Part shown: positions 3,431 to 46,116 of the stretch, in pieces
How the letters are laid out: the number at the start of each line of letters is the position of its first letter
Numbering within the stretch: position 1 is the stretch's first letter
Source of the DNA: Minisyncoccota bacterium
GTDB lineage: Bacteria > Patescibacteriota > Minisyncoccia > Phycocordibacterales > WO2-35-19
Reading direction: 5' to 3'
NCBI GenBank assembly: GCA_041664625.1
Contig: JBAYKK010000005.1
Location: 1 to 56,792, forward strand
Length of the DNA stretch: 56,792 nucleotides
Translations under genes and position numbers: made by a program
Notes under the pieces: generated by a model
The model's database searches: none
The model's input: only the letters and a program-made list of their open reading frames with translations
What the model was told of the DNA's origin: nothing

Positions 3431-6400
3431 TTAATTGTTATTGATAATATATATTAAATCATTTTTCAAAAGATCTCGAGCCTCAACTGTTATCTTGTTT
3501 TTCTTTAGAAGGAAATCGAGTTCCTTTTCAATCAGCTTGATGATAATTTTATCTACTCTTTTTTCATATTTTCCGTTTCTCTTTTTCTCAAATTTGATGA
3601 TTAGTTTGGCCTCCTTTATAAGACCATCTCTCGTCTTTTTATCCTTAATCCAACCAAGGATGTAGGCCTCATTAATATCTGTAATCAAAGTATCCAATGT
3701 AACCACTCTTTCAACTTTTATATTTTCTGGATTTTGATTATCCAGATTTAAAGACAAATCAGTAATTTGATTAGGTGTGATAACTCCTGAAGTTTCCGCT
3801 GTAGCCGAGGTCTGATCAGATATGTAAGTAGTTTCAAAACTATATGATCCACCACCGTCCGTTCCCTGCAATTGAATCTTGTATTCTCCGTCTAGTGGAT
3901 CGGGAATCGTCAAATATTCATCATCAGTATTGAAGCCAGAATAAAACGCCCCCGGAATTTCATTGATTTCATTACCTGTTACAAAATCTTTACCAATTCT
4001 CTTCCCGTCGGGAGCGATTACTACAAAATCAGCCGGGGAAAATATTTTGGCAAATAGAATCTTTAGAGGTAAAGAGGTTTTGACTGGGTCAACCATTTCT
4101 CCCCCATTTATTTCAGTAAATATTTCTTCTTCCGCATCAGTTGGCAGGTTTATGTGACCAGATGGTAGTCTCATATCAATAGAATTGCTAATTGATGCGC
4201 TAACAATAGGTACAGTACCATCACCCGAACCCATTATTAATCCTTTATCTCCAGAACTTTTGTCATAATTTTCAGGATATCCGTGTTCCCAAAGGGGAAG
4301 TTTGTTTGAATCAACAACTCGAATACCTGTTATGGTACTTTCTGTGTCTGATATTATATTCAAAATATCTATATCAGATTCTAGGAAGGCGACAAGTCCT
4401 TGTTTAAGATTTTCAAGAAAATCATTTTTAGGATAACCTATCGGGTAATTTAGAGTTTGATTGGTTGTGACTTCTTGAAGATAGTTTGAAATTGGTAGCA
4501 ATTCTTGAGCAGAAATAATGGGCCATTGATGGATATAATCAAAAAGATTATCATATCCGAGTTTTTTTGCTTCTTTTTCATAATGAGATTTTATAAAGCC
4601 ATCAATCATACCAGGCGGAAATTCGCCCGCTTCCCAAATCAAATAATCTTTGGGCGCTCCTTGGTGAGGAGTGCCAAGGAAAATCAATTGGTCAATGTCA
4701 TTTTCATAACCACCAGATTGGGCATAACTTCTCGCCACAAGTCCTCCCATTGAATGAGCTATTATATCAACTTGGTTACAATCGCAAATATTTTTGATCG
4801 AATCAATTTTTTGTTTAAGAAGTGCTGCTGTTTCAATGTTTGAATTTTTCCAATCATATCCAAAAGGAAAAAGGCTTTCTCCACGAACATAGCCGTTGTT
4901 TTCCAAAGTTTCAATCAAGTTATCGTAAACATGAAAAATCGGATCAATAGTCCAAACCCCATCTTTATATACACTCCCCATAATCCCCGGGATGATGATG
5001 ACTGGGTTGATTGTTGGCTCTTCGATGACTACAGGAGGCCAAGCGCCTAGGAATGGAGTGTACAAAACATTGTCGGTTATCATGGTTCCTGAACCAGTTG
5101 GTGTGCCAACATAGGTATTATTTGGTCCATCGGCACTTCCCCACCAGTTGTCCCGAGCATCAATAATTTGAAGAGGCTTAGTTTCCCACCACCAACCCAA
5201 ATCTTTGCCACTATCGTTATAAACTCCATAACCAGTCATAACCAAACTTGATTGTGAAATAGTAGCGGCACCTCCTCGAGACCAAAGCCCATTATCACCA
5301 ACCAATTCACTCTTACTTATTGTGGTAGTCCCAGCATCTTGATAAATCGCCGCTCCACTGTTGTATTTAAGTATTGAATTTGAAATTGAAAGGTTCGCTC
5401 CTCTTTGATAAATAGTGGCGGCAACTCCGGCCAAATATTCGCCATTCCAATTGAAACCACCATAACCTAGCGTCACATAATCAAACTCGGCGTTTGAACC
5501 ATTTTCCAAAAATATTGAGGCCCAATTTCTCGGAGCTGGAGTGGTGGCGTCACCATCGCCGTTAGTGTCACCCCCAATCGAATCGTCTTTCAAAGAAGTG
5601 ATGTAGATTTTATTTTCGGCAGTGCCTTTGGCAATCAAGTTGCCACCTTGGACATTTATGGAACCATTGGTATATCTGTCCTCCATTTTTATAATCACCC
5701 CCGGTTCTATAGTCAGAGTAATGCCTGCAGGAATCACAAGGTATTCAATAATATACGGCAAATCGCCAGCACTCAAAGTGGTGTCTTGAGACAAGACACC
5801 ATTAATTCCAAATGCTTTCCTTTTAATATCAGAGCTGGTGTTGCCCGAATGAATAAACTCTTTGGAAGCTTCAATCATACCCGTCCTATCGTTACCAGAA
5901 AAAACATTATTTGTAAGAGTGAGCTTCCCTGGGCCGTAGGCAGAAATACCGTAACCAGGGCCATACCCAGTGCCATCAACATTGTTTCTGATTTCGTTGT
6001 TTGAAATGGTGACATCACCCGAGTCAATGCGTACCCCGACTATATTATTTTCAATAATTGAATGGGTAAGGGAAAGGGTGCCGCTTATATTATAAATCCC
6101 ATTACCTGCCGACATCTGCCCCCCTGCCCCATTTGAAGTTATTCTGAAATTTTCATGTATGTATGAATTTTTTATATCTACTGTGCCGCCATCATTTTCG
6201 ATACTTACATAATCTCCATAGCCGTAACCACCATAACCCGCATATGAAAAATCAATGTATTCCAAAATTCCCTCCGAGCCCGGTTTGAAATATAATCCTT
6301 GCCACTCGCCAGGACTACTGACACTAGGGCCCGTTCCATCGGTGTCTCCACCAACTTCGTCATTCCAAAAAGAGGTGAAATAAACTGGTTGATTCTCGGT

Positions 6401-6812: not shown

Positions 6813-7481
6813 TTATAGCGTATATTTTTCAATGCCATTCTTAAATGCTAACCAAAAACCTATAAAATCATCAAAATTTTTTGTATTCTCAAAATATTCT
6901 GGGAAAGCTTCTTTATTCAAAACACTTGCTTCTTGCCTATCTTCTAAATAATCTAAATAACTTGAATGTTTATAAGAATTTAAAAATATTTTTGATTGAG
7001 CAAAGTCTTGAATACCTTTTTCTTTCCAGTTTTTGTCTGTTAGTTTTATTGGGTTTAGGTGTACATAAGAGAAGAGATATTTTAAATATTCATCTCTACC
7101 CGCATGTTGTGCTTTAAATGGGCCTTGGAATAAGGACCCACTTCGCTTGTATTTTTTATTAAAATACATAGCGTAAGCGGTTTGAAGTTTTTTCATAAAA
7201 GAGCTGACTCCCTCATCATTTTTGGCTCTAATAAGTAGGTGGAAATGATTCGGCATTAAACAATATGCCCCAATATTAACTACCGTTTCTCCCCTATCAT
7301 AAGAAAAACGATCTTTTTTGGAAACCATTTTTAAAACAATTCTTTCCTCTGAATTAAACAAATATAAAGATTCAACAAATCTTGTATAATCTTTTGGATC
7401 AATAAAAATATCTCTTTTGTCAGTACCGCGATTGTATACGTGGTAATACTCATCTGGAGCAAATTTGAATTCTCTATACAT
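6813..7481 (-). mobile_element. REP-associated (RAYT/IS200-like Y1) HUH transposase
   Basis: YYHVYNRG, YCLMPNHFHLL (HUH), YAMYFNKKYKRSGSLFQG, YVHLNP; ATG at 7481 preferred. Confidence 0.9.
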
Positions 7482-20136: not shown

Positions 20137-21528
20137 TTATAACATTTTTTGTTTGAGGAAAGAAAGCAAATCTTTTTCAGCCACCCTTTCTTGTTCACCA
20201 CTGTCACGTTCGCGTACAGTCACTCCGCCTTCTTTTTCAATAGTATCAAAATCAATAGTCACACAAAAAGGTGTACCAATCTCATCTTGTCTTCGGTATC
20301 TCTTTCCAATATTTCCATTGTCATCAAATTCAACTGCTCCAAATTCTTTCCTAAGGTTTTGGAAAATTTCTCGAGCTTTCGCAACAAGCTCTGGTTTATT
20401 TTTGAGAAGCGGAAATACGGCCACTTTGACCGGAGCGAGCTCTGGTTTGAGCGCCAAATAAACCCTCTTTTCTCCCCCTAATTCATCTTCTCTATACGCA
20501 TCTGCCAAAAATGCCGTGAACATACGGCCCATACCAACCGAGGTCTCCAATATCCAAGGTATATATTTTTCTCCTGTTTCTTGGTCAACATAATTAAGAT
20601 CGGTCCCCGAAAATTTCATATGCTGGCTCAAATCATAATCCGTCCGATCATGAACACCTTCTAATTCATCGAAGCCTAAAGATGGGAAATTGTATTCTAT
20701 ATCCCATGCGTCTTTGGCGTAAAAAACTAGATTTTCATGTTGATGCCAACGCAAATTTTCTTCACGAATACCCATTGAAAGATACCAGTCAAAGCGCTCT
20801 TGCTTGATTTTTTCGTAGGCTTCTTTGTTTTCGTTTGGTTTGATAAAAAATTGAGTATCAGCTTGTTCAAACTCGCGCACTCTAAAAAGAAAATTGCGAG
20901 GAGAAATTTCGTTTCGAAAAGCCTTACCGATCTGTGAAATACCAAACGGGATTTTGGGATGCATCGAGTCCACGATATTTTTGTAATCAAGATAAATACC
21001 CTGACAAGCCTCCCCTGGTAGATAAACCGGCTCAGCACCTTCAGAAGTGAAGTCCCCTAGATTACTTTTGACCAAAAGATTAAACTTTTTAACTTTAGAA
21101 AAATCCTTAGCCCCACACTTTTCACAAACTATTTTATCTCTATTTTCATCAAAAACTTCATTGAGTTTTGCCTCATCCATTTTTTCATCAGCACTGACGC
21201 CGATTGCATTCAAAACTTTATCAACTCGGATACGGGTATTGCATTTTTTACATTCTGCCAATGGATCAGAAAATCCGGTGGTATGCCCACTCGCATCCCA
21301 CACTTTAGGATGTTTAAACATGCCCGCGTCAAGACCATAATAATTATCTTTTTGATATACGTTGGCGTTCCACCATGCCCTTTTCAAATTATTTAAAAGC
21401 TCAACTCCGCGTGGACCAAAATCAAAAACTCCGGCTAGCCCACCATAAATCTCAGAACCTTGAAAGACAAAACCTCGCCTTTTGCAAAGCGAAATTATTT
21501 TATCCATTTGATTTTCTTCTTTTGCCAT
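20137..21528 (-). CDS. glyQS: Glycine--tRNA ligase (alpha2 type)
   Basis: LCKRRGFVF..SEIYGG, GEACQGIY, GKAFRNEISP..FLFRVREFEQ, GKRYRRQDEIGTP; ATG 21528 preferred. Confidence 0.96.
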   Translation of the reverse strand: MAKEENQMDKIISLCKRRGFVFQGSEIYGGLAGVFDFGPRGVELLNNLKRAWWNANVYQKDNYYGLDAGMFKHPKVWDASGHTTGFSDPLAECKKCNTRIRVDKVLNAIGVSADEKMDEAKLNEVFDENRDKIVCEKCGAKDFSKVKKFNLLVKSNLGDFTSEGAEPVYLPGEACQGIYLDYKNIVDSMHPKIPFGISQIGKAFRNEISPRNFLFRVREFEQADTQFFIKPNENKEAYEKIKQERFDWYLSMGIREENLRWHQHENLVFYAKDAWDIEYNFPSLGFDELEGVHDRTDYDLSQHMKFSGTDLNYVDQETGEKYIPWILETSVGMGRMFTAFLADAYREDELGGEKRVYLALKPELAPVKVAVFPLLKNKPELVAKAREIFQNLRKEFGAVEFDDNGNIGKRYRRQDEIGTPFCVTIDFDTIEKEGGVTVRERDSGEQERVAEKDLLSFLKQKML

Positions 21529-21563
21529 AATTCTATAATAACTCACTTTCCTTTCGTTTTCCA

Positions 21564-21604
21564 GAGGGTGACCCTTGAGGATTTTGCCCCAAAGGGTCAC
21601 CCTC
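21564..21604. repeat. 13-bp inverted repeat at the RT stop
   Basis: GAGGGTGACCCTT...AAGGGTCACCCTC. Confidence 0.75.
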
Positions 21605-22598
21605 AAATTTTTTTAATTTGCTCCCACAACTTCCACCCACTCCCCCATCCTAACATCCCCAAATACGAAGCTACTGTATTTTCTCTTTGTTTTCCTTCTT
21701 TTGAATTTATATTCCTAAACATTTTCTTTTTAGTTGCAGTTCGCAATACTCGGTGATTTGGAAAATGTACCCAACCCAAAAAATCAACTCCCGAATATAG
21801 GGTTTTAACAAAAAGTTTGTCTGAATGAAGAGTTAAATTCAATTCTTCTTTTAGGAAATCTGCAATTTTTGGTACTAGTTCCAAAATATAATCTTGATCT
21901 GTATCTAAAATAACAAAATCATCTGCGTATCTAATATAATGTTTGATTTTTAACTTGTGTTTAATAAATTGATCAAATTTGTTTAAGTACACATTTATAA
22001 AAAGTTGGGATGTTAAATTACCCAGTGGCAAACCAACCTCAATTTTATTTTTTGTATTGAAACTTGAAACTACTTTTTCCAAAAGCCAAATTATATTTTC
22101 ATCTTTTATATATTCTTTCAAGATTTTAATCAGTATTTCGTGACCAATACTGGCAAAACACTTCTTAACATCACCTTTTAAAACCCAACAAGTTTTTGTG
22201 TTGTTTTTTGATACTTTCTTACCAAAATCTCTAAAACGATTTAAGGCTTTGTGTGTACCTTTGAAATTTCGGCAAGAAAAAGAATCAAAAACGAATAATC
22301 GATCAAAATATGAATACAAAATTCTGTAGACAGCGTGATGCAAAAGTCTGTCTCGAACTGTAGCTTTGTGAATATTGCGAGGTTTTGGATCGTTTATGGA
22401 AAAAGCAAAATATCCACCGTGTTTGTATGATTTGTTCGTTAAATCAAAGTGAAGCTCTGATATATTATGTGAAAGATTGAGCGCAAACTCAGCCACATCT
22501 TTTTTGTTTTTCTTACCTGGTAAAAATTCCTGCCAAGCGTCATAAAGATTTTTAACTGATATAATGTTTTGGTAATCAATTTTAATTAAATTTTTCAT
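21603..22598 (-). CDS. DGR-class reverse transcriptase
   Basis: KPRNIH..TVRDRLLHHAV, GTHKAL, LKGDVKKCFASI, GLPLGNLTSQ, YIRYADDF, GVDFLG, SYLG; ATG 22598 (MKNLIKID) preferred to the MGGGG extension. Confidence 0.96.
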   Translation of the reverse strand: MKNLIKIDYQNIISVKNLYDAWQEFLPGKKNKKDVAEFALNLSHNISELHFDLTNKSYKHGGYFAFSINDPKPRNIHKATVRDRLLHHAVYRILYSYFDRLFVFDSFSCRNFKGTHKALNRFRDFGKKVSKNNTKTCWVLKGDVKKCFASIGHEILIKILKEYIKDENIIWLLEKVVSSFNTKNKIEVGLPLGNLTSQLFINVYLNKFDQFIKHKLKIKHYIRYADDFVILDTDQDYILELVPKIADFLKEELNLTLHSDKLFVKTLYSGVDFLGWVHFPNHRVLRTATKKKMFRNINSKEGKQRENTVASYLGMLGWGSGWKLWEQIKKI

Positions 22599-22982
22599 AT
22601 GCAAACCAATTCTACCCCCCCCCCCCAAGAATTACCAAAATTAATCCCCAAAAAAAAAAAATACTAAACCCTTTGGCAAAAACTGCATAGAGATTTCCCA
22701 AGAGTTGAACGGCTTGGTATAGGACAAAAGATTGAAAATATTTTTCTTTTTGTATTAGAGTTAACTTTTTATTCCGCATATTTACCTCTAGAACCTAAAA
22801 TACTGATGCTCGGTAAAGCTATATCTAAACTAGATATTTTAAAATTTTTTATACAACTAGCTTGGGAGAATAAATTGATTTCCACAGATCAACACATTGA
22901 ACTGTCTCAAAACTTGGAGGAAATCGGGCGACAACTTGGTGGTTGGAAAAAAGGACTTGAAGCAAAACTCCCGTCAAAATAA
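22599..22982 (+). pseudogene. avd: Avd-like four-helix-bundle accessory protein, antisense to TR/RT, with in-frame TAA at 22665-22667
   Basis: Own translation: MQTNSTPPPQELPKLIPKKKKY*TLWQKLHRDFPRVERLGIGQKIENIFLFVLELTFYSAYLPLEPKILMLGKAISKLDILKFFIQLAWENKLISTDQHIELSQNLEEIGRQLGGWKKGLEAKLPSK; IGRQLGGW tail typical of Avd/bAvd. Confidence 0.85.
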
Positions 22983-23004
22983 TGACGGGAGAAATGATTA
23001 GTTT

Positions 23005-23120
23005 CGGAAGGACAATGCGATGACGATTGTCGCCATTCCACACGTTGGCGTTCGAGAAGCGATTGACGTTCACGTTCGGCCTACCGTCAGTGTTCAGGTT
23101 CACGTTAGCAACGAAGAACT
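23005..23120 (-). repeat. DGR template repeat (TR)
   Basis: AAC-rich, reads FFVANVNLNTDGRPNVNVNRFSNANVWNGDNRHRIVLP; ungapped match to 23436-23551. Confidence 0.96.
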
Positions 23121-23339
23121 TGTGCTATAAATCTTCCGTTGCACCACCCATCAAACCATGACAAGTTGAATATTATTCGGGACATAAAAGTCCACTAATT
23201 TATAGCACCAACTAATTATTTTTTGTTTATAAAAATATATCCACTCTTTTGTAAGACGTATCCGACAAAATTCTCAAATATACTTTTATACAACCATGGC
23301 ACCGAAGCCATAACCGCGGCGCTTGCATATTGCAAGTTT

Positions 23340-23414: not shown

Positions 23415-24044
23415 TTAGGACTCAAGGGTCAGTTGCGGAAGGACAATGCGACGACGAAAGCCGCCACGCCACACGCCGGCGCTCGAGACGCGACCGACGC
23501 CCACGCCCGGCCCACCGTCAGTGCTCAGGCCCACGAAAGCAACGAAGAACTCACCCGCCACCTTGAATAAAAAGAAGGTGGAGTAACCACCAGTGCGAAG
23601 CCACTGCTTGTGGTCGCACACAAAAGCGATGATCTGCTCCTGGGTGAGGCAGAGATCATCCAAACTCCGTCCGAGACTACTGAAGATGGTTTTGAAGTCT
23701 CCGTCTTGGAACATCTCGTAGACTTGGACGGGAGTTTCTGGTTTTGCTTCTTCGGGGACATCGAGACCCCAGTTTTTGAAGTCGGGGTCAAGGTACCCAG
23801 TGAACACTTCCTTGGCGGAAGTGATGGTTTTGGTGCCGGTGGTGGCGGAGATGGTGACACTGGCGGAGATGGAGCGGAGGATTGATGCCACCGCTTTCTC
23901 CACCTTCACCCAACACGGCTCCTTGCGGAGGAACTTTTTCAATTCGTTTCCCCACAGTTCGGCGTCGTTGCCGAGCAAGTTTTTCATCAGTTGGTTAAGC
24001 AGTCCAACGAACTGCTGGAGCGCTTCACTGAGCATATTATTCAT
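23415..24044 (-). CDS. DGR target protein (209 aa), VR in the C-terminal 40 residues
   Basis: VR encodes FFVAFVGLSTDGGPGVGVGRVSSAGVWRGGFRRRIVLP; SD GAAAGGA; visibly GC-richer than flanks. Confidence 0.95.
   Translation of the reverse strand: MNNMLSEALQQFVGLLNQLMKNLLGNDAELWGNELKKFLRKEPCWVKVEKAVASILRSISASVTISATTGTKTITSAKEVFTGYLDPDFKNWGLDVPEEAKPETPVQVYEMFQDGDFKTIFSSLGRSLDDLCLTQEQIIAFVCDHKQWLRTGGYSTFFLFKVAGEFFVAFVGLSTDGGPGVGVGRVSSAGVWRGGFRRRIVLPQLTLES
23436..23551 (-). repeat. DGR variable repeat (VR)
   Basis: 22 mismatches to TR in 116 bp, 21 at TR adenines. Confidence 0.96.
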
Positions 24045-24112
24045 GGTCAGTTTCCTTTCAAATTTCTGTACAGGTTTTTATTTGGTTTTCACCTTCCTGC
24101 ACTCTACCTAAA

Positions 24113-24142
24113 TTATACACCCAAACACCCTACTTTGTCAAG
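24113..24142 (-). promoter_or_regulatory. sigma70 promoter of the DGR target
   Basis: TTGACA-N18-TATAAT. Confidence 0.6.
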
Positions 24143-36332: not shown

Positions 36333-38045
36333 CTATGATTTTTTACTACCTCCTACAACTAGATTTTTGACTGTTGCAACAACATTATCGAAGACAGAAG
36401 TTAACTTTGTTTTCGCTTCTTCTGTAAGACGAGAAGTATGCATCACAGAGTTTCTGAGTGGTTTGTAGGGCGTATCTTCGTCTCTAAGAATTTTATCGTC
36501 AATAACTCTTGCCAGATCAATATAATCTAAATACATCAATAGATTTTCCTCGGCACTCCTGATTGGTATTGATATTCCTGCTTCGGTTTTCTGATCTTGC
36601 AACCCCTTTTTTCTATCCTCGCCTTTACAATATACACACAAACTAGTATTTCCAGCTTTTTTATCATATCGATCTATACATGTTTTATCGCCATCGCTCC
36701 GATCTTTGTTTAAACAAGCGGTAGGACCATTATCTCCAATATGTCTCCTTAATAAGTTTTCTGAGATAAAACACTGGACATAACTACTACTGTTGAAAGC
36801 GGCATCGTTGGCTAAATCCCTAATAAACTTATCACCACCATTTATGCCGTCATCTTCTCCAGTGTAGTCCTTGGCAACTTCTCGATACAATGATTTCGCT
36901 TTCTTCATTTTCGACGACTCTCTTTTTGTGTTATCGGGGTCGCCATCTTCACCACGCATCTCGCGAAGATCGTCCCACTGATCCAATACTTTTATTACAA
37001 GTATTTTTATTTCAGCGAGATATTTCTTATAGATCGGATCGTCAACTTGCACTCCTTCTCGACTACTTGTAAATGGATCATTTTCGCCACTATCTAAAGA
37101 ATCAATATGAATTTGACCATAAATATACTCTTCGGGAAGCTGGGATGAGGGCGAATGCTTCATGATGTCAAGTTCACGCATTCTACCGTTCACAAAAAGA
37201 TCAACGCCGATGCGTTCCTTAGCGCCAAAGATATTTCGATTTGTAGGTTTCTTTACAGACGCAATGAATCCACTTATCTCTACACTATCAGTCGTAAGCC
37301 CGATCATGCTGCCGTTAGCAGGTGTGATCAAAGGCAAGAATGGGTCTGAATCATAATTATTGATATTCCAAACAAACTCCGTATTGCTTGCAAGTTCACT
37401 TAGTGCGTCAATAGTAACTTCGGTATTATTGAGAACTATTTTGAATTCTGGATCAATTAGTGAAAATCTGAAATAAAGAGCGATAATTTTTCTCAAAAAT
37501 TCTTCTGTATGGCTCCTTTCCTCTTTCAAGCCCTCAAAACAAATAACTGTGCCTCTATCGGCGCTACATAGTTCTTTATAAGCACTAAAGTCAGGTTCTT
37601 TGAGTTCATAATCTGCGGTGCCAGAACCTTTTTTAATCTCAGCATTTATTTCACTATTATCAATCACAACCCCATTCCATTTTCCCGCTGTAGTTTTTGA
37701 AAGAACTACAACCCGATCGGCACATGATAGTAACGCCAATTTCCCAATACCTTTTCTGCCAATGTGATGCCGTTTTTTGTTCGGAGAATGCGTACCAAAC
37801 TCATCGCGCTTGGAATAGCCAATTTTCAGAAATCTATTTTGTAAATCATCACGACTCATCCCAGTGCCATCGTCGGCTATACACATGTTGCGCTTCGCAG
37901 GATCATAGACAATTTGCACATTTTCAGCCTCTGCGTCCCACGCATTTGAAATTGCCTCACCAAGAATGGTGGCAAAACTGCGGTATAAGTTTCGACCAAG
38001 ATGGTCTAGCACAGTGAGCGCAATTTCAAATCTTAGAGGTTTCAT
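36333..38045 (-). CDS. GHKL (HATPase_c, MutL/MORC-like) ATPase with C-terminal candidate HEPN domain
   Basis: EAISNAWDA, DDGTGM, GRKGIGKLA, GTVI; C-term LMYLDYIDL...LRNSVMH. Confidence 0.85.
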   Translation of the reverse strand: MKPLRFEIALTVLDHLGRNLYRSFATILGEAISNAWDAEAENVQIVYDPAKRNMCIADDGTGMSRDDLQNRFLKIGYSKRDEFGTHSPNKKRHHIGRKGIGKLALLSCADRVVVLSKTTAGKWNGVVIDNSEINAEIKKGSGTADYELKEPDFSAYKELCSADRGTVICFEGLKEERSHTEEFLRKIIALYFRFSLIDPEFKIVLNNTEVTIDALSELASNTEFVWNINNYDSDPFLPLITPANGSMIGLTTDSVEISGFIASVKKPTNRNIFGAKERIGVDLFVNGRMRELDIMKHSPSSQLPEEYIYGQIHIDSLDSGENDPFTSSREGVQVDDPIYKKYLAEIKILVIKVLDQWDDLREMRGEDGDPDNTKRESSKMKKAKSLYREVAKDYTGEDDGINGGDKFIRDLANDAAFNSSSYVQCFISENLLRRHIGDNGPTACLNKDRSDGDKTCIDRYDKKAGNTSLCVYCKGEDRKKGLQDQKTEAGISIPIRSAEENLLMYLDYIDLARVIDDKILRDEDTPYKPLRNSVMHTSRLTEEAKTKLTSVFDNVVATVKNLVVGGSKKS

Positions 38046-39081
38046 ATTGTTTAATATGCTTCTTTATACCAAGCCCAATAACGTGCCCGAGCTGAGGCGG
38101 AACTGCATTTCCGATATGTTTACTAATTTTCGACGCTGGAAAATCCCCAAAATCATAGCCGATAGGAAAGGTCTGCAACAATGCGCCCTCACGAATTGAG
38201 AGTGCCCTGTTTTGTTCTGGGTGTCCAAATCTTCCAGACCCATAACTCGTAAATTGTGTTGTGATTGTTGGTGACACACCATTCCATGTCATTCGTCCAT
38301 ATACAGAAGTATACGTTTGTCCGCTATCCTTTTTGTAACAATTTGGAAGTAATGTTTTGTTCCAATCATGCCACGTCCCTCCAGGTTTAGATTGAGCAAT
38401 TCGTCTCTGGTTTATCGGAGTTAGTTTTTTTGCTTGATGTAAATGATCATGTTTAGATATTTCTCCTGCATCAATTTTTGGCAATTCACGAATAACATGC
38501 CCCACGGTAATATATTTATCTTTTGTATGTGTTTCTTCTGGTATTGAAATTTTGCCAAGTTTCGAAGCAAGTAGAATTAAACGACTACGATTTTGCGGCA
38601 CGCCATAATTTGGTGCGTATACAACTTTCCAGTCAACTTCGTATCCAAGTTTTTTAAGTTCGTTTACAAAATTCTTAAACACGTCAGTTTTTGTAACCCC
38701 TCGAACGTTTTCCATGGAGATAATGTCAGGTTTAATAATTTTTATCCCTCTAACAAAATGATCAAGCAGATTCCATCTATTATCGTGCGTATCCTTATGT
38801 AATTTGAAAGCATGCGAAGAGAATGGCTGGCAAGGAGCACAACCAACAAGTACCCGAGTACTTCCTTTTGAATATATTTTATTTAATTTTTTGAAATCAA
38901 ATTCCGAAATATCTGCGGATATAAATTTAGCCCCATTATTTTTTTCGTACGCATAGGCACATGATTCGTCATTATCAAGGCCAGCCAAGACTGATAACCC
39001 AGATTTTCTTAGTCCATATGTCAAACCACCTATTCCACTAAACAGGTCAATGACTTCTATTTTTTTAGATTTTTTTGTCAT
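38026..39081 (-). CDS. DNA (cytosine-5)-methyltransferase
   Basis: DLFSGIGG, GCAPCQPFS, ENV, PQNRSR, RALSIREGALLQTFP, GNAV. Confidence 0.97.
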   Translation of the reverse strand: MTKKSKKIEVIDLFSGIGGLTYGLRKSGLSVLAGLDNDESCAYAYEKNNGAKFISADISEFDFKKLNKIYSKGSTRVLVGCAPCQPFSSHAFKLHKDTHDNRWNLLDHFVRGIKIIKPDIISMENVRGVTKTDVFKNFVNELKKLGYEVDWKVVYAPNYGVPQNRSRLILLASKLGKISIPEETHTKDKYITVGHVIRELPKIDAGEISKHDHLHQAKKLTPINQRRIAQSKPGGTWHDWNKTLLPNCYKKDSGQTYTSVYGRMTWNGVSPTITTQFTSYGSGRFGHPEQNRALSIREGALLQTFPIGYDFGDFPASKISKHIGNAVPPQLGHVIGLGIKKHIKQYETSKI

Positions 39082-39085
39082 ATTT

Positions 39086-39706
39086 TTAACTCGCTATTTC
39101 AAAAATCTTTTTCACAAAAGACGTTCGGGCGTAAAATGCACGACTGACCGACCCGTGACCAGGGCCTTTCGTGCGAGCTTGTATCCACTTTCCGTCTTTT
39201 CCAGTTAAAGCTTCGAATCCTTCTTTTATCAACTTTGCACGGATAAAATCATAGTCAGCTTTTATTTCTTTTATCAATTCATCATCCTCGGCAAAGTCTA
39301 GACTTGCAACTTTCAATAAAGTGGCCCCCTCGGAATTTGTGCCATTCCACTGCACCGCGCAAAAAACAATGGTTTTGAGCTTTGCCCAACAATGGCTTTC
39401 AAAAAACGAATGGGCTTTCAATTCTGTTGGATTGATCATTGTTATCGCCATTGTTTCCTTTGGCACGAGTTCACCTTTTATTTCACGGAAAGCAACTGAC
39501 TTTAATTCGTAAGTAAGCCCATTCGGTGCTTTTGATATGTTGGTTTGAAGTCCTGCCAAACGTTCCAAAACAAGACCCTTCCAGCCTTTATTCTGCTTTC
39601 CTGTCTCGTAAGTCGTAATGCCGTGTTCCAAAGCCAATTTTCGTAAATCTTGGCCTATATACTTTTTTAGATTTTTTATCGCAATTGTGCGTGTGATGAT
39701 TTTCAT
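39086..39706 (-). CDS. MutH/Sau3AI-family restriction endonuclease
   Basis: NKGWKGLVLE...YELKSV...PKETMAIT, ADYDFIR, QARTKG.GH.S.SRAFY. Confidence 0.85.
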   Translation of the reverse strand: MKIITRTIAIKNLKKYIGQDLRKLALEHGITTYETGKQNKGWKGLVLERLAGLQTNISKAPNGLTYELKSVAFREIKGELVPKETMAITMINPTELKAHSFFESHCWAKLKTIVFCAVQWNGTNSEGATLLKVASLDFAEDDELIKEIKADYDFIRAKLIKEGFEALTGKDGKWIQARTKGPGHGSVSRAFYARTSFVKKIFEIAS

Positions 39707-40521
39707 ATTTTTGCTTTCTTATTTTTCAAATTGCGATCCAATTCCTCAAATCTCTTTATTGATACATCTAAAAATTGTTTATCAAGATCAATGCCGATAA
39801 ATTTTCTGCCGAATAAATGTGCGGCGATTCCAGTCGTTGAGCTTCCCGTGAATGGATCAAGAATTAGATCTCCTTTGTTTGTGCTTGCAAGCACAATTCT
39901 TTTCAGTAAATCCTCTGGCTTTTGTGTTGGGTGCTTGCCAAATTTCTTTTCAATTGGCTTTGGTGTTCCCATAGACCAAACCGAACGCATTTGAAGCCTA
40001 GGCTTTTTTAATGCGTCCTCCGGCCAAGTGCCGTTTTTCATTAAATCGTAATTGAAAATATGTTTTGCTTTTTTGTCCCTCCTTGCCCAAATAATTGTTT
40101 CGTGACTTGCGGTAAAAAATCGACAACTTAGATTCGGTGATGCGTTCGGTTTGAACCATGCAATATCGTTAAGTACGTGAAATCCTGCGACCTGAAGTGC
40201 AAAACCGCATTGGTAAATTGAGTGATAAGTTCCACTGATCCAAAGTGTGCCAGAGGGTTTCAGTACACGCTTAACGGCTTGTATCCACTCAAGATGAAAT
40301 TCAAAATCTTTTTTTAATCCATTACTCTTGTCCCATTCGCCTTTATTCACGCTCACTTGCCGTCCAGCGTGGACAGTAAAACCGCCGTTTGAGAGCAGGT
40401 AGGGAGGATCAGCAAAAACCATATCAACCGAATTTTCTGGAAGTTCAGTAAGAACGTTCAAACAATTTGCTTGATAGAGAGTAAAATTCGGTTTTTCGTA
40501 ATATGGTTTTTGCATAGACAC
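39703..40521 (-). CDS. Beta-class N4-C/N6-A DNA methyltransferase (DpnB-like)
   Basis: ADPPY, VNKGEWD, WFKPNASPN, HPTQKP, DPFTGSSTT. Confidence 0.95.
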   Translation of the reverse strand: MSMQKPYYEKPNFTLYQANCLNVLTELPENSVDMVFADPPYLLSNGGFTVHAGRQVSVNKGEWDKSNGLKKDFEFHLEWIQAVKRVLKPSGTLWISGTYHSIYQCGFALQVAGFHVLNDIAWFKPNASPNLSCRFFTASHETIIWARRDKKAKHIFNYDLMKNGTWPEDALKKPRLQMRSVWSMGTPKPIEKKFGKHPTQKPEDLLKRIVLASTNKGDLILDPFTGSSTTGIAAHLFGRKFIGIDLDKQFLDVSIKRFEELDRNLKNKKAKI

Positions 40522-44763: not shown

Positions 44764-46116
44764 ATGTTTAAAATTTTAAAAAAAATAATACCCAAATCGG
44801 TTTTCCAATTTTTCCAACCAACTTACCATTACCTATTGGCTTTTTTGGGAGCTTTGATTTATCGCTTCCCCGCTCAAAAACTCATAGTGATCGGTGTGAC
44901 CGGCACCAAAGGCAAGACAACCACCGTAGAATTAGTTAATGCTATTTTGGAATCAACTGGATACAAAACCGCCCTCCAAAGCACTTTGCGTTTTAAAATC
45001 GCAAAAAAAGAAAAGAGGAACTTATTTAAAATGAGTATGCCAGGCCGATTTTTCATGCAAAAATTTTTGCGTGATGCCGTTACCGCCGGCTGTAGCCACG
45101 CCATCATAGAGATGACTAGTGAAGGTGCTAAGCAATTCAGACACAAATTTATTCACCCAGACGCTCTGATTTTTACCAATCTGGCGCCCGAACACATCGA
45201 ATCACACGGCTCTTATGAAAAATATTTGCAAGCCAAACTTTCTATTGCCAGAGAACTTGAGAGCCCAAAGAAAAAGTTCATGAAAAAAGTCTGGCCTGTG
45301 TCAACAAGGAGGTCCGAGGACTTTTTGAAGGAACCTTTTTCTTTGGGCTCCGTCATAATAGCCAACACAGATGACAAAGAAGGCAAAAAGTTTTTGGCTC
45401 TCAATATACAAAACAAAATCCCCTACTCTCTGAATGATGCCATCAACGTCAAAGCCACCGAAAAAGGCTCTTCATTCCAGCTTGGCAAATTGGTTGTGCA
45501 TAGCAAATTGCCAGGTATATTCAATGTCAGCAATATGCTCGGGGCCATAGCTTTGGCAAAATTCATGAACATACCAGATGAAAAAATAAAAAAGGGTCTG
45601 GAAGATATAAACTTCATTAGAGGCCGAATGGAAAAAATAGAAAATAATTTAGACATTGATATCGTAGTCGATTACGCCCACACTCCAGATTCACTTATGG
45701 CAGTTTATGGAACTTACAACAGCCATATGAAAATTGCAGTTTTGGGCAATACTGGTGGTGGCCGAGACACTTGGAAAAGAAAAGTGATGGGCGAAATCGC
45801 CGACAAATATTGCGACCAAATTATTTTAACCAACGAAGACCCTTACGATGAAGACCCTAGAAAAATCATAGAAGATGTAAAAGTTGGCATCACAAAAAAA
45901 CAGGTAGAAATAATTATAGACAGGCGCGAAGCTATCGCTACAGCCATCAAAAAAGCTCTAACCATAAAAAAAGAAAGTGGCGACAAATACAAAGTAGCAG
46001 TGCTCATAACCGGCAAAGGCACTGACCCATATATAATGGAGGCTGGTGGCAAAAAAACTCCTTGGGACGATGCCGAGGTTGCAAGAGAAGAACTCCAAAC
46101 TATTTTAAATAAATAA
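44764..46116 (+). CDS. murE: MurE-type Mur ligase
   Basis: GVTGTKGKTTT, EMTSEG, FTNLAPEHIE.H, GRME, VDYAHTPD, TNEDP..EDP, GKG. Confidence 0.9.
   Translation: MFKILKKIIPKSVFQFFQPTYHYLLAFLGALIYRFPAQKLIVIGVTGTKGKTTTVELVNAILESTGYKTALQSTLRFKIAKKEKRNLFKMSMPGRFFMQKFLRDAVTAGCSHAIIEMTSEGAKQFRHKFIHPDALIFTNLAPEHIESHGSYEKYLQAKLSIARELESPKKKFMKKVWPVSTRRSEDFLKEPFSLGSVIIANTDDKEGKKFLALNIQNKIPYSLNDAINVKATEKGSSFQLGKLVVHSKLPGIFNVSNMLGAIALAKFMNIPDEKIKKGLEDINFIRGRMEKIENNLDIDIVVDYAHTPDSLMAVYGTYNSHMKIAVLGNTGGGRDTWKRKVMGEIADKYCDQIILTNEDPYDEDPRKIIEDVKVGITKKQVEIIIDRREAIATAIKKALTIKKESGDKYKVAVLITGKGTDPYIMEAGGKKTPWDDAEVAREELQTILNK

Follow-up and report, generated by a model that had tools for sequence, protein, structure and literature searches.

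The avd gene of the DGR cassette described here begins with a simple-sequence repeat, and a comparison of related loci showed that the position of this repeat in the first codons of avd is conserved across the clade and that its length is hypervariable between otherwise identical copies. The explanation that we favor, at slightly better than even confidence, is that the cassette is a DGR of the B3 architecture in which slippage of the avd 5′ repeat would switch the Avd protein on and off, with RNA hairpins overprinted on the gene. All positions refer to the window, that is, the whole 56.8-kb stretch of DNA that was analyzed. The following features are referred to below.

24112–24141, − strand: promoter-like site TTGACA-18-TATAAT, a perfect consensus, upstream of the target gene
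23415–24044, − strand: DGR target gene, 209 aa, without a Pfam match
23436–23551, − strand: VR core, 116 nt, forming C-terminal codons of the target gene
23005–23120, − strand: TR core, with 27 A's, many of them in AAC codons
22968–22991, − strand: hairpin 1, CTCCCGTCA-loop-TGACGGGAG, directly 3′ of TR; its loop holds the avd stop codon
22599–22982, + strand: avd, 127 codons in public copies, with a TAA at 22665–22667 in the window
22627–22667, no strand assigned: nine window-specific substitutions, seven of them to A, creating the TAA stop and an A12 run
22627–22661, − strand: hairpin 2 region; in public copies GAGGATTAC-cacaa-GTAATCCTC at 22627–22649
22615–22626, + strand: C12 simple-sequence repeat (G12 in the RT sense), 16 nt after the ATG
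22609–22614, − strand: candidate −10 box TAGAAT, adjoining the G tract 10 nt before the RT ATG (a sequence match only)
22596–22601, no strand assigned: CATATG, the adjoining divergent start codons of RT (−) and avd (+)
22557–22565, + strand: candidate extended −10 box for avd, TGATATAAT, in RT codons 12–14 (likewise known from its letters only)
21603–22598, − strand: DGR reverse transcriptase (RT), 331 aa, with LGNLTSQ and YADD

Judged by its sequence, the locus is a chromosomal DGR of a Paceibacteria-type (CPR) bacterium with the standard CPR cassette layout. TR and VR differ at 22 positions of the 116-nt core, 21 of which are TR adenines; these A-to-N differences are a footprint that points to mutagenic retrohoming at this DGR. 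Beyond the core, weaker TR homology reaches 22993 and has an IMH*-like end. The ~40 C-terminal residues of the target protein (209 aa) are encoded by VR, which lies at the 3′ end of the gene. The RT carries the motifs of the DGR clade (LGNLTSQ at residue 192, YADD at residue 224), scored 77.9 bits against RVT_1 in a profile search, and has the BPP-1 bRT as its best solved relative (8ub7_A, E 8e-35, over residues 12–324). A search of the cassette against Rfam returned no family at gathering score.

The + strand gene between TR and RT is the Avd gene, as indicated by profile and predicted fold. The identification made in the initial annotation was upheld by Pfam bAvd (PF22296, 46.8 bits, cutoff 40) for the frame ending with the TAA at 22980–22982, whereas the 50 bits obtained with NCBIfam DivGenRetAVD (NF033474) stayed below the equivalog cutoff of 80. 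A PDB sequence search with Avd alone matched no Avd, and one with a profile of the CPR homologues did not reach the BPP-1 Avd by sequence. The structure model (pLDDT 90.5) consists of four helices and was superposed with Foldseek on the BPP-1 Avd 4dwl_D (TM 0.77/0.90, rmsd 1.5 Å); it also matched the Avd chains of the DGR RNP 8ub7. Residues 1 to 13 of the model lie outside the helices, and residues 1 to 7 have a pLDDT below 50. The prolines encoded by the C12 tract belong to this leader (MQTNSTPPPR), so that, according to the model, the repeat lies in a disordered N-terminal extension of Avd.

The C12 tract is the only G/C run of at least 8 nt in the window. A repeat was found at the 5′ end of avd in 95 of 105 distinct related loci, in 86 cases as poly-C of at least seven (range C7–14), in five as (CT)n spanning 13–37 nt, and in four as (CA)n. 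The site accounts for 94 of the 105 G/C runs of at least 8 nt that were present in 712 kb of these loci. In four pairs of near-identical copies, compared over 1.5–3.3 kb, the tract was the only indel: C9 versus C11 (L094 and L093; one mismatch over 1652 nt), C12 versus C11 (L115 and L117; no mismatch over 3250 nt), (CA)10 versus (CA)5 (L124 and L125; one mismatch over 1464 nt), and C10 versus C9 (L101 and L103; aligned over 3309 nt). Every pair comprised one in-frame and one out-of-frame allele. The runs of one groundwater study contained C11, C10, and C6 versions with contigs breaking at the tract, and had no second variable site within 500 nt of it. The tract lengths were taken from short-read assemblies and Logan contigs rather than raw reads, and homopolymers are least reliable in such data. 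The (CA)5 versus (CA)10 pair is free of the homopolymer-assembly objection. Two hallmarks of a contingency locus were thus found at avd, namely, a repeat in the 5′ coding region that is long enough to slip (at least eight G/C) and, in the assemblies and contigs, a length polymorphism with constant flanks.

In 94 of the 95 loci with a repeat, an ATG reads open into the tract; 32 of the 95 (33.7%) have it in the frame of Avd. A proportion of one third is also expected if the upstream ATG is unrelated to Avd translation. The tract-less alleles L085 and L086 read CATATGAATTTACCT... and give an in-frame MNLPQVI; therefore, the same ATG is likely to be the real avd start. In 20 of the 63 out-of-frame loci, the stretch from the tract to Avd residue 24 is devoid of ATG, GTG, and TTG, and a possible TTG, GTG, or ATG start is located downstream of the tract in the other 43.

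In the window itself, avd is broken. The initial annotation had described a frame running from the ATG at 22599 to the TAA at 22982; both codons and the + strand are real, but an in-frame TAA at 22665–22667 interrupts the frame, and the only listed open reading frame in it covers 22806–22982 (58 aa). The stop results from substitutions at positions 22627, 22630, 22638, 22641, 22648, 22653, 22659, 22663, and 22667. Over 6.4 kb, the window departs from the JGI/NCBI contig Ga0376277_0000563 and a Logan contig at these positions only; over the 47.7 kb compared, position 45055 is the single additional difference. The public version of the contig encodes an intact 127-aa Avd (P0001). If the window represented a real, decaying allele, in which a clustered G/C-to-A burst had killed avd, the DGR would be dead in the sampled population. 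The TAA and the loss of hairpin 2 would fit such an allele, as would the origin of the window from an assembly of its own, evident from the additional difference at 45055. We nevertheless regard this as highly improbable: the contigs of two independent public runs, like the JGI/NCBI contig, disagree with the window at each of the nine sites, the changes set in immediately 3′ of C12 and are mostly copies of a neighboring base, an ENA contig with the coordinates of the window ends inside the tract at 22620, and VR, TR, and RT are identical in the window and the public copy. The stop is probably a consensus error downstream of the homopolymer, because the substitutions start right after C12, where another assembly breaks. 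DGR-type adenine mutagenesis was rejected as their source; it is the public version that the relatives conserve, so that the direction of change is N to A.

The proposal of the initial annotation that the DNA is in dual use agrees with the presence of two conserved hairpins of the RT-sense strand, one overlapping the stop codon of avd and the other its 5′ codons. Hairpin 1 has a 9-bp stem with six GC pairs and is followed by TTTTGCTT at 22967–22960 on the − strand, and with its GC-rich stem and U tract it looks like an intrinsic terminator. In an anchored stem search with shuffled controls, a stem of at least 8 bp was present in 39 of 55 relatives versus 3.6% of the shuffles, with covarying inner pairs, and the stem together with a TTTTGTTT-type tail is conserved in most relatives. 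G·U pairs in hairpin 1 number 105 in the RT sense versus 26 in the avd sense. Hairpin 2 displays compensatory variants among the relatives. In the RT-sense RNA of the public copies, the U/C-rich segment 22650–22661 is predicted to pair with G12, which extends the stem to 23 bp (−28.8 kcal/mol, z −2.75, vs. −17.5 kcal/mol in the window version); the substitutions in the window destroy the hairpin. The covariation and the G·U asymmetry show that both ends of avd are overprinted by RNA hairpins that act on the RT/TR-sense strand.

Taken as a switch for Avd, the repeat would operate on or off, or on dosage, by slippage, as we infer from its sequence and variation. Replication slippage, and perhaps transcriptional slippage, would bring the start at 22599 into the reading frame of the four-helix Avd body or out of it, the protein would be produced in a sub-population only, and mutagenic retrohoming would thereby be turned on and off stochastically. 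One mutation generator (repeat slippage) would govern another (adenine-directed retro-mutagenesis). In the Bordetella system, RT requires Avd for cDNA synthesis (bioRxiv 10.1101/2023.10.23.563531), and a corresponding dependence in the present cassette would be an extrapolation by analogy with that phage system. Extended to CPR bacteria in general, the proposal that DGR mutagenesis is gated by an avd contingency locus, the same DNA forming a structured RNA on the opposite strand, is put forward tentatively, at rather less than even confidence.

The repeat may alternatively serve the RT-sense strand as a structural element or a signal, with Avd made regardless and length variation amounting to neutral drift. 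It would then form part of a long leader stem analogous to the RT-binding spacer stem of Bordetella, or the spacer of the RT promoter, and Avd would be produced from a downstream start or by constitutive slippage, transcriptional or ribosomal, at the C run, which is followed by hairpin 2. Frameshift sites classically consist of a slippery run with a hairpin after it. The 23-bp RT-sense stem takes in G12, the adjacent 9-bp hairpin shows compensatory changes, and a TAnnnT hexamer directly follows the tract in 27 of 85 relatives (32% vs. a background of 3.9%). Since the G tract is part of the stem and a −10-like hexamer adjoins it, the conserved role could be structural or transcriptional, with length variation tolerated; the alternative starts in the 43 out-of-frame loci would also be consistent with this. 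We consider this explanation rather unlikely on balance. The nine loci with (CT)n of 13–37 nt or (CA)n misfit a fixed spacer or a G-specific structure and fit a preference for any slippery repeat, the 20 out-of-frame loci mentioned above lack a canonical downstream start, and hairpin 2 reaches at least 6 bp in only 34 of 92 loci. The (CT)n versions of this length also make it unlikely that the tract serves solely as a promoter spacer.

The strand arrangement of the cassette had been recognized correctly in the initial annotation: target gene, VR, TR, and RT are all encoded on the − strand, avd is located antisense between TR and RT, and the RT ATG (22598–22596, −) abuts the avd ATG (22599–22601, +) in CATATG, so that the two genes diverge from adjoining start codons. 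Among 80 RT-related loci, avd is located on the opposite strand directly upstream of RT in 73; the remaining seven have at most 201 nt of upstream sequence, and the divergent orientation is therefore found in 73 of the 73 testable relatives. Misassembly or chance as the source of the layout was rejected on these grounds. The layout had been presented as a departure from the best-studied DGRs, but it is not new: architecture B3, TR-(avd)-RT, accounts for 90% of CPR DGRs (Wu et al., 2018, NAR 46:11, PMC5758913), and the window conforms to it with TR at 23005–23120 (−), avd at 22599–22982 (+), and RT at 21603–22598 (−). The zero spacing did not hold up as a conserved feature. It occurs in 13 of 38 close and two of 67 distant loci, so that a family-wide rule was rejected and the CATATG junction is essentially a trait of the close sub-lineage. 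Within the clade, the two starts are an estimated −48 to +136 nt apart, the start calls being approximate.

As the initial annotation had pointed out, the avd promoter must lie inside the RT coding sequence. The candidate extended −10 box TGATATAAT is located there, 33 nt before the avd ATG, and the pattern TGnTAnnnT recurs 51–58 nt upstream of the tract in relatives. The same annotation envisaged that the TR-RT spacer RNA runs antisense through avd, with mutual control by antisense pairing or transcriptional interference, and that the zero-spaced starts belong to this device. The strand arrangement is indeed real and conserved, the RT-sense RNA structures overlap both ends of avd, and the candidate avd and RT promoters each lie within the 5′ region of the other gene; the two transcripts would therefore overlap by ~30 nt at their 5′ ends. 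Nevertheless, such antisense control appears improbable, because the GC-rich hairpin and the TTTTGTTT-type tail after TR in most relatives would stop most TR transcripts before avd, the zero spacing is confined to one sub-lineage, and the start-to-start distance varies over the range given above, uncertain start calls included. The claim that ~380 nt of DNA serve both as TR-RT spacer RNA and as avd could be retained for the hairpins, but is weakened for the spacer as a whole by the terminator-like hairpin and U tract. None of the public RNA runs searched contains the region.

The avd 5′ repeat of changing length appears to be new. The searchable literature, which does not include the main paper on CPR DGRs (Paul et al., 2017), contains no link between DGRs and homopolymeric tracts, slipped-strand mispairing, or contingency loci, and a search of the text of Wu et al. 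(2018, PMC5758913) found no mention of an avd repeat tract, abutting starts, or strand-specific hairpins. If the proposed switch is real, the repeat would be a simple, heritable, and reversible means to limit costly hypermutation to a part of the population, and tract length modulo 3 would provide a metagenomic read-out of an “armed” DGR. DGRs reach their highest abundance in CPR bacteria, organisms that cannot be cultivated by themselves, and little is known of DGR regulation. At the tract, gene callers cut such avd genes short or restart them, and assemblies are broken or degraded; broken avd genes of CPR bacteria therefore need to be checked before a DGR is called dead. The strand-specific hairpins at the ends of avd mark where the functional RNA of B3 DGRs may be sought, and this RNA cannot be modeled directly on the Bordetella phage RNA.

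The cassette in the window shares gene order, orientation, CPR host, and the 3′-terminal VR with the CPR B3 cassettes (Wu et al., 2018, PMC5758913), of which it is a member. With the BPP-1 DGR (mtd-avd-TR-brt), it has in common a homologous RT (8ub7_A), the same Avd fold (4dwl, 8ub7_B), and adenine-specific TR/VR differences. In BPP-1, an Avd-binding stem-loop, Sp 3-33, is located immediately 3′ of TR (Handa et al., bioRxiv 10.1101/2023.10.23.563531), and the 3′ end of the same-strand avd gene contributes to the RNA through an avd:Sp duplex (bioRxiv 10.1101/2023.10.23.563531). The ~9-bp stem 3′ of TR is the positional analogue of Sp 3-33 in the present cassette; in contrast to BPP-1, avd is located on the other strand downstream of TR, and the hairpin next to TR runs antisense to the stop codon of avd and has a U tract like that of a terminator. 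The BPP-1 avd is not known to have a repeat tract.

In Haemophilus influenzae, the TA repeats between hifA and hifB lie between divergent promoters. The avd repeat is similarly located in a short region common to two divergent genes and is adjoined by a −10-like hexamer; unlike the hif repeats, it lies inside the avd reading frame, and its (CT)n versions of 13–37 nt cannot be a 17-nt promoter spacer. Phase-variable loci of Neisseria, Campylobacter, and Haemophilus contain poly-G/C tracts in 5′ coding regions (PMC5084427, PMC8355987, PMC3315296). The avd loci resemble them in that the start codon is closely followed by a G/C homopolymer of 8–14 nt or by a dinucleotide repeat, and in a length polymorphism that is the only indel between near-identical genomes, with alleles distributed over three frames; by this frame logic (32 of 95 in frame), changes in length would switch avd. 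They differ from them in that the hosts are CPR bacteria and that the putatively gated gene encodes the accessory factor of a targeted mutator instead of a surface or restriction-modification protein.

The window contains a complete DGR cassette on the − strand, with a gene on the + strand inserted between TR and RT:

23415-24044, − strand: DGR target gene, with the VR at its 3′ end
23005-23120, − strand: TR core
between TR and RT, + strand: avd-like frame matching Pfam bAvd
21603-22598, − strand: RT gene, with a DGR-type LGNLTSQ motif and a YADD box

The 116-nt core common to TR and VR contains 22 mismatches, 21 of which lie at TR adenines. The best solved relative of the RT is the Bordetella phage bRT (8ub7_A, E 8e-35, residues 12-324). 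Because housekeeping genes (MetRS, GlyRS, IleRS, EF-P, RecA, and ribosomal proteins) surround the cassette, it is regarded as chromosomal and not as part of a phage. The glycyl-tRNA synthetase gene (20137-21606, −) starts immediately next to the RT stop codon or overlaps it (21603-21606). Elsewhere in the window, genes with the Pfam labels N6/N4 methylase, MutH-like, C5 DNA methylase, and HATPase_c_3 are clustered at approximately 38026-40521 (−) in what resembles a restriction-modification or defence locus, and a Y1 (IS200/IS605-type) transposase gene was labeled by Pfam at approximately 6813-7481.

The + strand gene was identified as avd, as the initial annotation had proposed, because of its match to Pfam bAvd (46.8 bits, cutoff 40) and its fold; its score against NCBIfam DivGenRetAVD (50 bits), however, was under the model cutoff of 80. 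The structural model, built with 24 homologues as input (pLDDT 90.5), consists of four helices and superposes on BPP-1 Avd (4dwl_D, TM 0.77/0.90, rmsd 1.5 Å) as well as on the Avd chains of the DGR ribonucleoprotein 8ub7. The start codons of RT and avd are joined back to back in the hexamer CATATG at 22596-22601.

Both aspects of this layout were surveyed in relatives. Among 80 loci encoding RT relatives at 55-68% identity, nearly all labeled CPR/Patescibacteria or unclassified uncultured bacteria, avd lies immediately upstream of RT, in opposite orientation, in 73; the remaining seven have at most 201 nt of upstream DNA. The antisense position of avd, the headline of the initial annotation, is thus conserved, but it is already known, since Wu et al. 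(2018; PMC5758913) define architecture B3 as TR-(avd)-RT, the parentheses denoting the reverse strand. The zero spacing is less widespread: the CATATG junction occurs in 13 of 38 loci with at least 60% Avd identity, but in only two of 67 more distant loci, and the distance between the two starts varies within the clade, from about −48 to +136 nt by estimates with uncertain start calls. Abutting avd and RT starts are a lineage trait.

The 5′ codons of avd contain a simple repeat:

22615-22626: C12 tract, 16 nt after the avd ATG (G12 on the RT-sense strand)

It is the only G/C run of at least 8 in the 56.8-kb window. Related loci were gathered from collections of genomes and metagenomes; of 105 distinct ones, 95 have a simple repeat at this position (86 poly-C of 7-14, five (CT)n, and four (CA)n), with all tract lengths derived from assemblies. 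Of the G/C runs of at least 8 in 712 kb of fetched DNA, 94 of 105 are at the avd tract site, and several of the other 11 represent this site where a contig ends. The tract is the sole indel when near-identical copies from different samples are compared:

L094 versus L093: 1 mismatch in 1652 nt; C9 versus C11
L115 versus L117: no mismatch in 3250 nt; C12 versus C11
L124 versus L125: 1 mismatch in 1464 nt; (CA)10 versus (CA)5
L101 versus L103: 3309 nt aligned, single indel; C10 versus C9

Four runs of one groundwater study, compared with L093, yielded C11, C10, and C6 as well as contigs ending in the tract; a single base distinguishes all four from L093, and the 500 nt compared show no other variation. 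In the window's own lineage, one run has a C12 tract, and the tract of a related strain is C10. In locus L116 (~1450), the sole difference from L115 in 3185 nt is an A before the tract changed to C, which extends the C run from 12 to 13 and keeps the frame. Contig 181 of ERZ1292625 (108 kb) carries two cassettes, L088 (100379-103690) and L090 (6655-9966). L088 lacks roughly the first 275 RT codons, and its DFLGWVH-encoding sequence is joined, about 10 nt on, to a C10 tract, so that the deletion endpoint adjoins the repeat.

In 94 of 95 loci, an open frame leads from an ATG into the tract; this ATG shares the frame of the Avd body in 32 of 95 (33.7%), a proportion indistinguishable from one third. 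The same proportion would also be expected if this upstream ATG were irrelevant to Avd. Each of the four near-identical pairs consists of one in-frame and one out-of-frame allele. The tract-less alleles L085 and L086 read CATATGAATTTACCTCAAGTAATC (MNLPQVI) in frame, so in this lineage Avd truly begins at the ATG abutting the RT start. Among the 63 out-of-frame loci, 20 lack any ATG, GTG, or TTG from the tract to Avd residue 24. We infer that the simplest reading of the repeat is a slippage-driven frame switch: slippage would shift the avd start in and out of frame in the manner of a contingency locus, gating Avd production and, through Avd, retrohoming. Against this switch stand the possible start downstream of the tract in the other 43 out-of-frame loci and the origin of every tract length in assemblies. 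The Avd leader, prolines included, lies ahead of helix 1 in the model, with disorder predicted for its first residues, so the leader can tolerate a changed number of prolines. Gene callers re-start or shorten Avd at the tract, giving homologues that start with LPQ or comprise only 92-100 aa.

The avd frame had been described as open from 22599 to 22982. In the window, however, translation from the ATG at 22599 ends at TAA 22665-22667, and the sole ORF listed in this frame is 22806-22982. Public copies of the contig (JGI/NCBI Ga0376277_0000563 and, from SRR18595301, a Logan contig) encode an intact 127-aa Avd beginning MQTNSTPPPRGLPQVILKEKECYTLW. Nine substitutions clustered in 22627-22667, seven of them to A, distinguish the window from these copies and yield an A12 run, the TAA stop, and a TTG extending the listed RT ORF to 22628. 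A single further difference from the JGI copy was found in another 41.3 kb (47.7 kb compared altogether), at 45055 (A in the window versus G), which marks the window as a separate assembly from the same population; the affected codon is number 98 of a Mur-ligase ORF (44764-46116), GTG (Val) in the JGI copy and ATG (Met) in the window. A real dead avd allele is possible but unlikely. Most likely, the stop reflects poor consensus downstream of the homopolymer, because the public letters occur at all nine sites in contigs of two independent groundwater runs, the first substitution is at the base right after C12, most substitutions copy the adjacent base, and the ENA contig with the window's coordinates breaks off inside the C tract, at window position 22620.

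On the RT-sense strand, hairpins overlap both ends of avd:

22968-22991, RT-sense: hairpin 1, arms CTCCCGTCA / TGACGGGAG, avd stop codon in the loop
22627-22649 in the public copies: hairpin 2, GAGGATTAC-cacaa-GTAATCCTC, directly after the C tract

The proposed dual use of this DNA is thereby supported at the avd stop codon and 5′ end. Hairpin 1 starts within a few nucleotides of the TR end, and stems of at least 8 bp were found in 39 of 55 relatives versus 3.6% of shuffles in an anchored search. Its outer pairs are kept as CTCYC/GRGAG and its inner pairs covary. Non-Watson-Crick pairs are G·U 105 times in RT sense versus 26 in avd sense, and the RT-sense stem is longer in 41 loci and shorter in four, which indicates that hairpin 1 acts in the TR-containing RNA. 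Its position is that of the Avd-binding stem-loop in BPP-1, and stems of ~9 bp occupy this position in 207 other DGRs (Handa et al., bioRxiv 10.1101/2023.10.23.563531). A conserved TTTTGTTT-type tail follows, and the hairpin is listed as terminator-like; such an element directly after TR argues against the continuous 380-nt TR-RT spacer RNA envisaged initially.

Hairpin 2 reaches at least 6 bp in 34 of 92 loci versus 6.8% of shuffles; compensatory variants include GAGGATTGC/GCAATCCTC, GAGAAGCAC/GTGCTTCTC, and CGAGCAC/GTGCTCG. The window version of 22627-22667 abolishes it. In RT-sense RNA, the G tract is predicted to pair with the U/C-rich complement of the KEKE codons in a 23-bp stem located 16 nt before the RT AUG (−28.8 kcal/mol, z −2.75), whereas the window version folds differently (−17.5 kcal/mol).

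Sub-threshold matches to the Rfam RT-9 RNA were observed at 23215-23324 (−) in the window (28.3 bits) and at 2045-2158 (−) in L093 (36.4 bits), against a gathering score of 46.1. They extend over the whole model, lie roughly 95 nt upstream of TR in RT-sense orientation, and contain a GC-rich hairpin of 10 bp each. According to a speculation by Weinberg et al. (2017), RT motifs are parts of DGRs; in this clade, the RT-9-like element may form the 5′ portion of the DGR RNA. In another related locus, L003, a LOOT RNA (RF03000, 81.1 bits, over the gathering score) lies at 5084-5201 (+), about 100 nt downstream of the RT gene.

Candidate transcription signals, all of them sequence matches only, are the following:

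24141-24112, − strand: TTGACA-18-TATAAT, 12/12 consensus sigma-70-type, ~70 nt upstream of the DGR target gene
22557-22565, + strand: TGATATAAT, 33 nt ahead of the avd ATG within RT codons 12-14, candidate avd signal
10 nt ahead of the RT ATG, directly adjoining the G tract: TAGAAT, candidate signal

The motif TGnTAnnnT recurs in relatives 51-58 nt upstream of the tract. TAnnnT beside the tract is found in 27 of 85 relatives versus a background of 3.9%, which could also reflect the leader codons. No RNA sequencing run was found to contain the region.

By every sequence feature tested, the window element is a DGR of architecture B3. Its mechanism should be like that of the Bordetella system (RT, Avd, and a structured TR RNA), but the RNA layout is different. 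No link between DGRs and phase-variable repeats was found in the searchable literature, which did not include Paul et al. (2017), a key paper on CPR DGRs. The avd repeat resembles those of classical phase-variable loci and may act as a switch. The repeat and the hairpins that overprint avd appear to be new relative to the known B3 layout.
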